Assembly: GCA_000165345.1 (NCBI GenBank)
Contig: CM000433.1
Span: 448,001-512,000, forward strand
Length of the DNA: 64,000 bases
Direction: 5' to 3'
The notes beneath the pieces were generated by a model. It was not told the DNA's origin and searched no databases. It saw nothing but the letters and a program-made list of their open reading frames with translations. Positions within the stretch are counted from its first letter, which is position 1; each line of letters opens with the position of its first letter. The translations under genes were made by a program, and so were the position numbers. This document shows positions 3,994 to 5,845 of this stretch, piece by piece.

Positions 3994-5638
3994 TTAATTA
4001 ACCAATAATTCCAACATAAAGTGTAGAAGTATAGTTACAATATGGATAGAAATACTATTTCCAATGAGAGAATATTGTTTCTTTAGATCTATATTAACAC
4101 CTTCAAACCAGTTATTTGGAAATCCCATTATTAAAAGCATTTCTTTAGGGTGGAAGCATCTTAGATTATCATTATCTCGAGCAGTTTGGAATCTTTGATG
4201 TTCTAAAATACGAGTATTAAATATATGACTATAAGTATCGTAATAATCAATAATACTTTTTTCAATTTTTTCGTGATTTTCAGAAAAATCAAAAAGAGGA
4301 CCACCACGACCTTTGGTTTCTATATAACTTTTTGTAAATGTGGTTGAAGCTTTGGAATTGATATTTACTATATCAAATTTGAAGGAAGGGTTATTTTTGA
4401 TAATATTTTTGGCAAATTGTTTGAGTAAATTAAAGCTTTCATAATCTATATCATTTGATTTCATTACCACATCACTAATTGAGTTTGGTATGTTATCTAT
4501 CATTTGGATTATTTGGTTATATTCATAAGGAAGAGAGCATAATAAATTTGAATATTCCAAAGGGATTTTTTCAGGTTTAAAGTCTTCGGTGTTTTTCTCT
4601 ATTGAATGGGATAAAAGAACATTACTTGCAATAGACTGACAGTTTTTTTGGTAGATTGATATTTTTAATTCGTTTAATTGCTTGATCAAATTTGCAGAAT
4701 CTTTTCTAACAGAAACACAGTAATACCTGACTCTCGTATTTGGAACTCCAATTAAGGTTGGCGACAGCATAAACTCAAATGTACAAAAGTTTAACTTTGA
4801 CAGCATTTTTATCATTTCTTTATGAGTATTTGAAGTTTCAAAGTTTGCAACATTTTCAACAAACCAAGCCTTTGGGAGTTTGTTTTGGCCATCTAATGAT
4901 AACATTAAGTCAATTAATTTTAGAAATGGTTTAGATCTTGAATCATCTGAATCTTTTCCTGAACCACCTTTAGTGAAAGGTTGACAAGGGGGACTAAGGA
5001 GCCAAATATCTGCATAAGGAATATCATTTATTTTTAAAGATTCAATATTTTTATTACATATTAAAGTATTTAAGAAATTTTTTTTATATGTAATGTTTGC
5101 ATACTCATTTATTTCAAAAGCTTTAATAATATCTAGCTTTAAATCAAAGTGGTTGTCTGATTTCTAAAAAATATTTCATTAGTTAAAAGAAAAATGTTAA
5201 TACGATTAAATGGAATTTAGCTGGAAATTTTTGATTTATTACTTACAGAATTAAATGAAAAAGTTGCATTTTTTATTGAAAGATGTAATCCTCCTATACC
5301 ACTAAAGAATCTAATTTTCCCATTATTAGATTCAGTTCATCAAATTTTTTTAAATCAAATCAAAGCAAAAAATATTTAATAAAATAATGAAAAAATGGTT
5401 ATATTTAAGAAATTGAGTCAAATTAGAAAGTTAATACATATATAAATATATATATATATATATATATATATATTTTAACAAATATTTGTAATTAAATATG
5501 TAAAGAAGCGGAATATTTAGTTTGCCATTACAAAAGTTTAAACAAATATACTGGAAATTAAATTAAGTAAACTCACTCCATTACAGAAAGCTTTTTATCT
5601 TCTTTATTAGAACATTTTTCCTCATTGTTAGCAGTCAT
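3994..5638 (-). CDS. DNMT2: tRNA (cytosine-5) methyltransferase DNMT2/TRDMT1 homologue. I predict 3 exons: 5577..5638, 5247..5310 and 3994..5163.
   Basis: Exon 3 matches TRDMT1 along its length. Motif IV is 'LLSPPCQPFT', motif VI is 'FVENV', motif VIII is 'FMLSPTLIGVPNTRVRYY', and motif X is 'LIGNSISIHIV'. Exon 2 encodes motif I, 'FFSGIGGLH'. Intron 2 (5164..5246, 83 nt) has a GTAAGT donor and a TTTTTTAG acceptor and keeps the frame. Intron 1 (5311..5576, 266 nt, GTGAGT...ATTAG) and the start ATG at 5638 are less certain; an alternative ATG lies at 5581. The ORF track lists only 3994..4905. Confidence 0.8.
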
Positions 5639-5717
5639 TACTTGGTATCTCTTTTTTTTATATTATTAATTTGTTTGATCAAAAAATAAACAAGAAGTCA
5701 CTAAATATGAAGAAAAA

Positions 5718-5735
5718 TTTTGAGCGGGAATTTTT
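5718..5735. promoter_or_regulatory. E2F-like site (TTTTGAGCGGGAATTTTT) in the 207-bp divergent DNMT2/ELOF1 intergenic region.
   Basis: The motif is present in the sequence. Its function is inferred from the known over-representation of GGCGGGAA/E2F motifs upstream of Cryptosporidium genes. Confidence 0.35.
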
Positions 5736-5845
5736 ATAAATAATATGTAATTTAAGAATATTTTAAACTAAATATAACAAGTTTACAAACTTATTAGTGA
5801 GAAAAAGTTTGAGAGTAAGCCAAAGAAGGTAATAAAAATTGAGTT

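Follow-up and report, generated by a model that had tools for sequence, protein, structure and literature searches.

We find that a 64,000-nucleotide stretch of Cryptosporidium parvum DNA (the window, referring throughout to this whole stretch) carries on its minus strand what is best explained as a single DNMT2/TRDMT1 gene, whose three exons encode a 431-aa enzyme with a tRNA-directed role expected from its family and a promoter in common with the divergent Elf1 gene. We assign this reading as a whole a probability of about 0.85. The gene is cgd5_2100/cpbgf_5002100 on C. parvum chromosome 5. Its model, identity and likely role are already known, since the 431-aa product is annotated as WRK32354.1 and the Dnmt2 was published in 2022; the novelty of the gene itself is nil. 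What our analysis adds is comparative support for the 431-aa three-exon model and the observation that most other Cryptosporidium annotations are truncated or mis-spliced N-terminally. It also adds that ten species have the same three exons, conserved splice sites and a head-to-head Elf1 gene, and that the promoter holds a conserved TTCCCGC footprint.

The gene model can be read directly from the window. Exon 1 (5577..5638, minus strand, 62 nt) opens with the start codon at 5638..5636 and encodes MTANNEEKCSNKEDKKLSVM together with the first two nucleotides of the E21 codon. Intron 1 (5311..5576, minus strand) spans 266 nt, has GTGAGT..TTAG boundaries, a GC content of 17% and a (TA)13 tract at 5447..5472, and contains stops in all frames. 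Exon 2 (5247..5310, minus strand, 64 nt) encodes motif I within (E)FFSGIGGLHLSIKNATFSFNS, with FFSGIGG at 5309..5289, and is followed by an intron 2 of 83 nt (5164..5246, minus strand; GTAAGT..TTTTTTAG, 19% GC). Exon 3 (3994..5163, minus strand, 1170 nt including the stop codon at 3996..3994) encodes motif IV PPCQPF (4992..4975, with the catalytic Cys102 at 4986..4984), motif VI ENV (4857..4849), the motif VIII arginines R186 (4734..4732) and R188 (4728..4726), a TFT at the position of the CFT motif (4341..4333) and motif X GNS (4062..4054), all on the minus strand; PPCQPF, ENV, the two arginines and GNS are invariant or nearly so in 69 homologues.

When joined, the exons amount to 1296 nt, which translate from the window into 431 aa plus a stop with zero internal stops. 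This intact frame bears out the original prediction of a DNMT2 gene spliced from three exons across two GT..AG introns at these positions. The peptides quoted in that prediction (FFSGIGGLH, AFEINEYANITYKKNF and LLSPPCQPFT) all lie within the 431-aa product, and the list of open reading frames does, as was said, hold only a 303-aa C-terminal piece of the gene (ORF 3994..4905). Retention of either intron leads to an early stop, which in the case of intron 2 falls after 9 codons. The E21 codon is assembled at the exon 1/exon 2 junction (GA|A), and since E21 is nearly invariant in the 69 DNMT2 homologues, homology directly supports that junction. The ATG at 5638 is the first ATG past in-frame stops located 8-9 codons upstream. 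Two candidate starts had been proposed, 5638 and 5581; the Met at 5581 is replaced by Ile or Leu in the nine other species that we compared and the exon 1 ATG is found in 10/10, which identifies 5638 as the start. Together with the Elf1 neighbour and the promoter box described below, the exons, introns and motifs noted at the outset are confirmed.

The 431-aa protein matches the C-5 cytosine methylase family (Pfam accession PF00145) over residues 18-421 with an E value of 3e-38, and the spliced frame is thus not a product of chance. A homology search with this protein ranked Cryptosporidium proteins top. In a sequence search of the PDB, the best five matches were all DNMT2 enzymes with E values from 7e-40 to 4e-30 (S. 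frugiperda 4H0N, human 1G55 and 9HGM, S. pombe Pmt1 6FDF and E. histolytica 3QV2), and M.HhaI was matched at about 1e-11. An AlphaFold model of the protein, made with 69 homologues, has a pLDDT of 88 and a pTM of 0.90, and the best nine Foldseek matches of this model are likewise all DNMT2 chains (target TM 0.76-0.80). By sequence and by fold, the protein is therefore nearer to DNMT2 than to DNMT1/3 or to bacterial C5-MTases.

The motif content of the protein is complete. C5 methyltransferase motifs I, IV, VI, VIII (RVR), IX and X are all present in canonical order, only 17-20 residues precede motif I, and a large N-terminal regulatory domain is absent. In the 69-sequence alignment, the motif I stretch E21-F-F-S-G-I-G-G is at least 90% conserved, and P101 and C102 (motif IV), E145, N146 and V147 (motif VI), R186 and R188 (motif VIII), and G410, N411 and S412 (motif X) are invariant.

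Public databases hold five products of the DNMT2 locus, four of which (4/5) can be rebuilt exactly from the window. The 303-aa model of the original Iowa II annotation is a single ORF without motifs I and IV. A 353-aa model from C. hominis jumps from exon 1 to PPCQ, and a 397-aa model starts at the ATG at 5323, uses a GTATAG donor at 5299 and is joined to exon 3. The 407-aa model (QOY41642.1, from CpIOWA-ATCC) ends exon 1 at 5585, uses a GTAATG donor and goes straight to exon 3, and so is without motif I. The fifth, the three-exon 431-aa model WRK32354.1, is identical to the product that we derive; it is encoded on CP141122.1 (GCA_035232765.1) by a gene spanning 1645 nt with Elf1 207 nt off, and the window is 100% identical to this CpBGF T2T record over the 3645 nt compared. 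The annotation of GCA_035232765.1, the CpBGF telomere-to-telomere assembly, was curated by hand with PacBio Iso-Seq and stranded RNA-seq. The three-exon structure proposed from the letters of the window is, in other words, the Iso-Seq-curated reference annotation.

Baptista et al. 2022 reported a "complete Dnmt2 ortholog" for C. parvum, and the preprint of that study noted that a missing Dnmt2 N terminus had been cited as a reason for absent DNA methylation. The 407-aa model behind this published 'complete Dnmt2' lacks the SAM-binding motif I. Four shorter models still circulate, and cloning or knockout work should take the 431-aa model. There is nothing unusual about the locus, which had been described before; the practical value of our analysis lies in annotation hygiene.

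We compared the C. parvum locus with those of C. ubiquitum, C. xiaoi, C. serpentis, C. meleagridis, C. felis, C. canis, C. ryanae, chipmunk genotype I and a species from a Logan assembly. The gene order RWD, Elf1 (divergent), DNMT2, FCH is kept in 10/10 species, and all ten have three exons, GT..AG introns at the same positions and intact ORFs of 421-437 aa. Exon 1 begins with an ATG, ends with ..[VA][MIL]E in phase 2 and is followed by a GT[AG]AGT donor in 10/10 species. AG directly precedes, and GTAAG or GTATG follows, the exon that carries motif I, again in 10/10; this exon measures 64 nt in nine of the ten and 58 nt in C. serpentis. In 9/9 other species the DNA upstream of the main exon encodes GIGG[LI]H, and in five of these the annotated protein lacks it. 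More generally, in six of these nine the orthologue model misses some or all of the motif I segment, though the exon is present in the DNA, and in a seventh (C. ubiquitum) the annotated start is misplaced.

Substitution patterns point in the same direction. Over 15 gap-free codons of exon 2, columns vary at 4/15 first, 1/15 second and 15/15 third positions, and variation so nearly confined to third codon positions implies that selection acts on the protein. Intron 1 has an identity to C. parvum of 0.21-0.75, compared with 0.69-0.92 for exon 2, and the intron value is the lower one in every species compared; among species, intron 1 ranges from 58 to 266 nt in length and intron 2 from 68 to 101 nt. 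The dN/dS over the whole CDS is 0.11-0.33 between C. parvum and five species, and the ten species have diverged to saturation at synonymous sites with the DNMT2 ORF intact throughout. At the level of sequence, these comparisons show the DNMT2 coding sequence to be under purifying selection. They also favour the 431-aa three-exon model as the form under selection, over the models of 303, 353, 397 and 407 aa.

These results bear on the view that the gene is a functionless, decaying relic. That view was suggested by the old truncated 303-aa annotation, in which motifs I and IV are missing and which had been cited to explain the absence of DNA methylation, but a frame held open across ten species that are saturated at synonymous sites, the low dN/dS values and the retention of all catalytic residues already refute it as far as sequence can, and we give it next to no credence.

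The comparison also bears on which transcript predominates. The main transcript might instead use the GTAATG donor at 5584 to pass from exon 1 to exon 3, yielding the 407-aa QOY41642.1, a DNMT2 without motif I that could not bind SAM and would be inactive or serve only to bind RNA. We hold this to be very improbable. Although the 407-aa model stands in the databases, and the window yields it exactly and in frame, exon 2 displays a protein-coding substitution pattern in ten species with its flanking AG and GT conserved, and skipping it from the canonical exon 1 donor shifts the frame. The 'donor' at 5584 is the Val19 codon GTA, which is replaced by an Ala codon (no GT) in C. canis, C. felis and C. 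xiaoi, and in C. ryanae a different sequence follows the Val19 codon. The CpIOWA-ATCC annotation paper describes its introns as 100% RNA-seq supported, yet the 407-aa product was deposited; the same group's later Iso-Seq-curated annotation has three exons.

In a narrower form of this idea, the 407-aa product would be a genuine minor isoform of C. parvum and of the species nearest to it, in which use of the 5584 donor skips the motif I exon in frame; the protein would be SAM-binding-deficient and could still bind tRNA-Asp. We see this as a slim prospect, but if it were true, the choice of splice site would adjust tRNA methylation, or work against it, over the life cycle. A search for the spliced exon 1/2 and 2/3 junctions in JGI metagenome contigs gave no match, a result that carries no information, since that collection is unlikely to contain C. 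parvum transcripts.

Turning to the activity of the 431-aa three-exon product, we find that it contains all of the residues needed in human DNMT2 (motifs IV, VI and VIII). Mutagenesis of the human enzyme has shown that these motifs are required, and that exchange of C292 lowers activity without abolishing it. The CFT motif of Dnmt2 (CFTxxYxxY-like) reads TFT (TTFTKSY) throughout the genus, with the FTKxY core kept. We considered TFT as a sign of inactivity and rejected it. In the 69 homologues (this protein included), the first position of the motif is T in 41 and C in 28, with Eimeria, brown-algal and many fungal proteins among those with T. Given this majority of T and the residual activity of the human C292 mutant, TFT appears to be a common variant and not a defect.

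By analogy with characterized members of the family, the predicted enzyme would bind S-adenosyl-methionine at the motif I encoded by exon 2. Cys102 of PPCQ would then attack C6 of a flipped-out target cytosine, with the assistance of Glu145 (ENV) and Arg186/Arg188, and C5 of C38, in the anticodon loop of tRNA-Asp(GUC), would receive the methyl group, as in the human, fly, S. pombe, Entamoeba and P. falciparum DNMT2 enzymes. We infer on this basis that Cryptosporidium DNMT2 methylates C38 of tRNA-Asp and, in keeping with the same analogy, would not methylate DNA detectably. We searched the window for a tRNA-Asp gene in which C38 could be inspected and found none, the only tRNA genes in the window being two for tRNA-Arg.

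A 2025 review, citing Gissot 2008, gives C. parvum as having no detectable DNA 5mC, and this favours RNA as the DNMT2 substrate. The enzyme might alternatively be primarily a DNA cytosine-5 methyltransferase, or act on both DNA and tRNA, and produce low-level or stage-specific 5mC. It does possess the full catalytic machinery of DNA C5-MTases, and published work reports low DNA activity or low genomic 5mC for PfDNMT2 and claims the same for other Dnmt2s. The closest relatives by sequence and fold, however, are tRNA-methylating DNMT2s and not DNMT1/3 or bacterial enzymes, and we consider a DNA-directed or dual function very improbable.

The gene lying head-to-head with DNMT2 encodes the transcription elongation factor Elf1/ELOF1 (5846..6592, plus strand; 248 aa, with a zinc ribbon at residues 2-79; Pfam accession PF05129, E 8.5e-27). 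The divergent intergenic region (5639..5845) is 207 bp long with 21% GC, so that the distance given in the original prediction, 207 bp from the DNMT2 start to the divergent ELOF1 gene, is exactly that between the two ATGs. This head-to-head arrangement is found in 10/10 species, with spacers of 140-307 bp. An E2F-like box had been predicted in the common promoter, and we find it as GAGCGGGAA at 5722..5730 on the plus strand (TTCCCGCTC in the DNMT2 sense), with a GCGGGAA core at 5724..5730 that is conserved as TTCCCGC. The TTCCCGC box is upstream of both genes, at a distance of ~86-92 nt from the DNMT2 ATG and ~116 nt from the Elf1 ATG. Eight of the ten species carry TTCCCGC unchanged and two carry a variant, the Logan species having TTCCCCGCGC and C. 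serpentis AGCGCCC near the corresponding position; the surrounding spacers have 21-35% GC and are otherwise poorly aligned. An Rfam scan of 3700..6700 for intronic or antisense ncRNA returned nothing at E ≤ 1.

The same core recurs elsewhere in the window. GCGGGAA occurs six times, against 1.5 expected, a count reached in 0/100 shuffles, and all six sites are outside long ORFs (31% of the window). Four of the other five sites read GGCGGGAA and the fifth reads AGCTTCCCGCC on one strand or the other. The canonical E2F consensus is TTTSSCGC, and the DNMT2/Elf1 box, taken as ATTCCCGC, agrees with it at 7/8 positions. It fails to match the palindromic E2F motif published for Cryptosporidium, [A/T][C/G]GCGC[G/C][A/T] (2025 review). 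Among apicomplexan genera, Cryptosporidium alone has kept E2F/DP factors, and no motif is more abundant in its promoters than that of E2F (2025 review). The E2F/DP proteins of C. parvum are cgd1_1560, cgd6_1430, cgd7_3650 and cgd8_1850. The alignment of the ten species shows the TTCCCGC box to be a conserved footprint in the DNA. In our reading, DNMT2 and Elf1 have a common 207-bp bidirectional promoter with one conserved E2F-like TTCCCGC box, and this box is a plausible E2F/DP site, probably bound by the retained E2F/DP factors.

A comparison with known systems reveals both likenesses and differences. The promoter box resembles Cryptosporidium E2F/DP sites in being a GC-rich box within AT-rich intergenic DNA, and the window has more GCGGGAA than expected, all of it in non-coding DNA, but the box reads GAGCGGGAA, unlike GGCGGGAA or the palindromic Cryptosporidium E2F form.

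At the protein level, the Cryptosporidium enzyme has the same fold and motif order as human DNMT2/TRDMT1 (1G55, 9HGM), S. frugiperda 4H0N, S. pombe Pmt1 (6FDF) and E. histolytica Ehmeth (3QV2), and like them it has no N-terminal regulatory domain. At 431 aa it is longer than these solved DNMT2s, which measure ~330-390 aa. Its variable region between motifs VIII and IX, a genus-specific feature, is longer than theirs, and it is within this region, around residues 221-250, that the AlphaFold model is least confident. A further difference from the solved structures, likewise specific to the genus, is an insertion of ~12 residues that follows the motif I helix where exons 2 and 3 meet. This insertion suggested that intron 2 might be misplaced (for instance, with an in-frame acceptor after TTTAAAG, 27 nt downstream). 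We rejected this possibility because the GTAAG donor and AG acceptor occupy the same position in ten species and the extra residues are found genus-wide, and because most of the insertion is modelled confidently as an extension of helix 28-42.

The functional parallel is with P. falciparum, in which PfDNMT2 methylates C38 of tRNA-Asp and knockout abolishes m5C38 in tRNA-Asp(GTC) and makes the parasite more sensitive to stress. A biological question, which is not new, is whether DNMT2-dependent tRNA-Asp methylation takes part in stress or translation control in a 5mC-less gut parasite as it does in Plasmodium. Likened by family and published description, PfDNMT2 and the C. parvum enzyme belong to the same family, and each is the sole C5-MTase homologue in its apicomplexan species, where DNA 5mC is scarce or absent.

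Five different public protein models exist for the DNMT2 locus (window 3994..5638, minus strand), with lengths of 303, 353, 397, 407 and 431 amino acids. Among the annotated orthologues, motif I, the SAM-binding motif, is absent from the models of C. meleagridis, chipmunk genotype I, C. canis, C. ryanae and C. felis, although the exon that encodes it is found in the DNA of each. The N-terminal splicing annotated for C. ubiquitum and C. serpentis departs from the conserved three-exon plan. A Cryptosporidium-like genome represented by an 89.8-kb Logan contig (SRR31860986) has intergenic DNA of higher GC content (35%) and encodes a DNMT2 with 73% identity to the C. 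parvum protein.

DNMT2 intron 1 varies in length, spanning 266 nt in the C. parvum gene (5311..5576) but just 58 nt in C. meleagridis. The C. parvum intron contains a (TA)13 microsatellite (5447..5472), and the variable length of this intron might make it a typing marker.

The divergent neighbour of DNMT2, Elf1/ELOF1 (5846..6592, plus strand), encodes a 248-aa protein in which the Elf1 zinc ribbon is limited to residues 2–79, the remainder forming a long, acidic, low-complexity tail. Orthologues in other species are of similar length (203–250 aa). The E2F-like box in the spacer between the two genes (core GCGGGAA, 5724..5730) is one of several in the window. Further GCGGGAA boxes occur at 18716, 24262, 26285, 26568 and 58256, and TGGCGCCA-type boxes at 11607, 14236, 31516, 41673, 47123 and 63832, all outside long open frames; an additional palindromic E2F-like site (28605) falls inside a long frame. 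The window also contains two tandem plus-strand tRNA-Arg genes (52124..52198 and 52290..52365; anticodons TCT and ACG), which are separated by 91 nt.

Throughout the genus, the DNMT2 protein carries a ~12-residue insertion (residues ~37–49, window ~5130..5265) after the motif I helix, spanning the exon 2/exon 3 junction. In the predicted structure model, most of this insertion prolongs helix 28–42, at high confidence. Solved DNMT2 structures, in contrast to the Cryptosporidium enzyme, lack the insertion.
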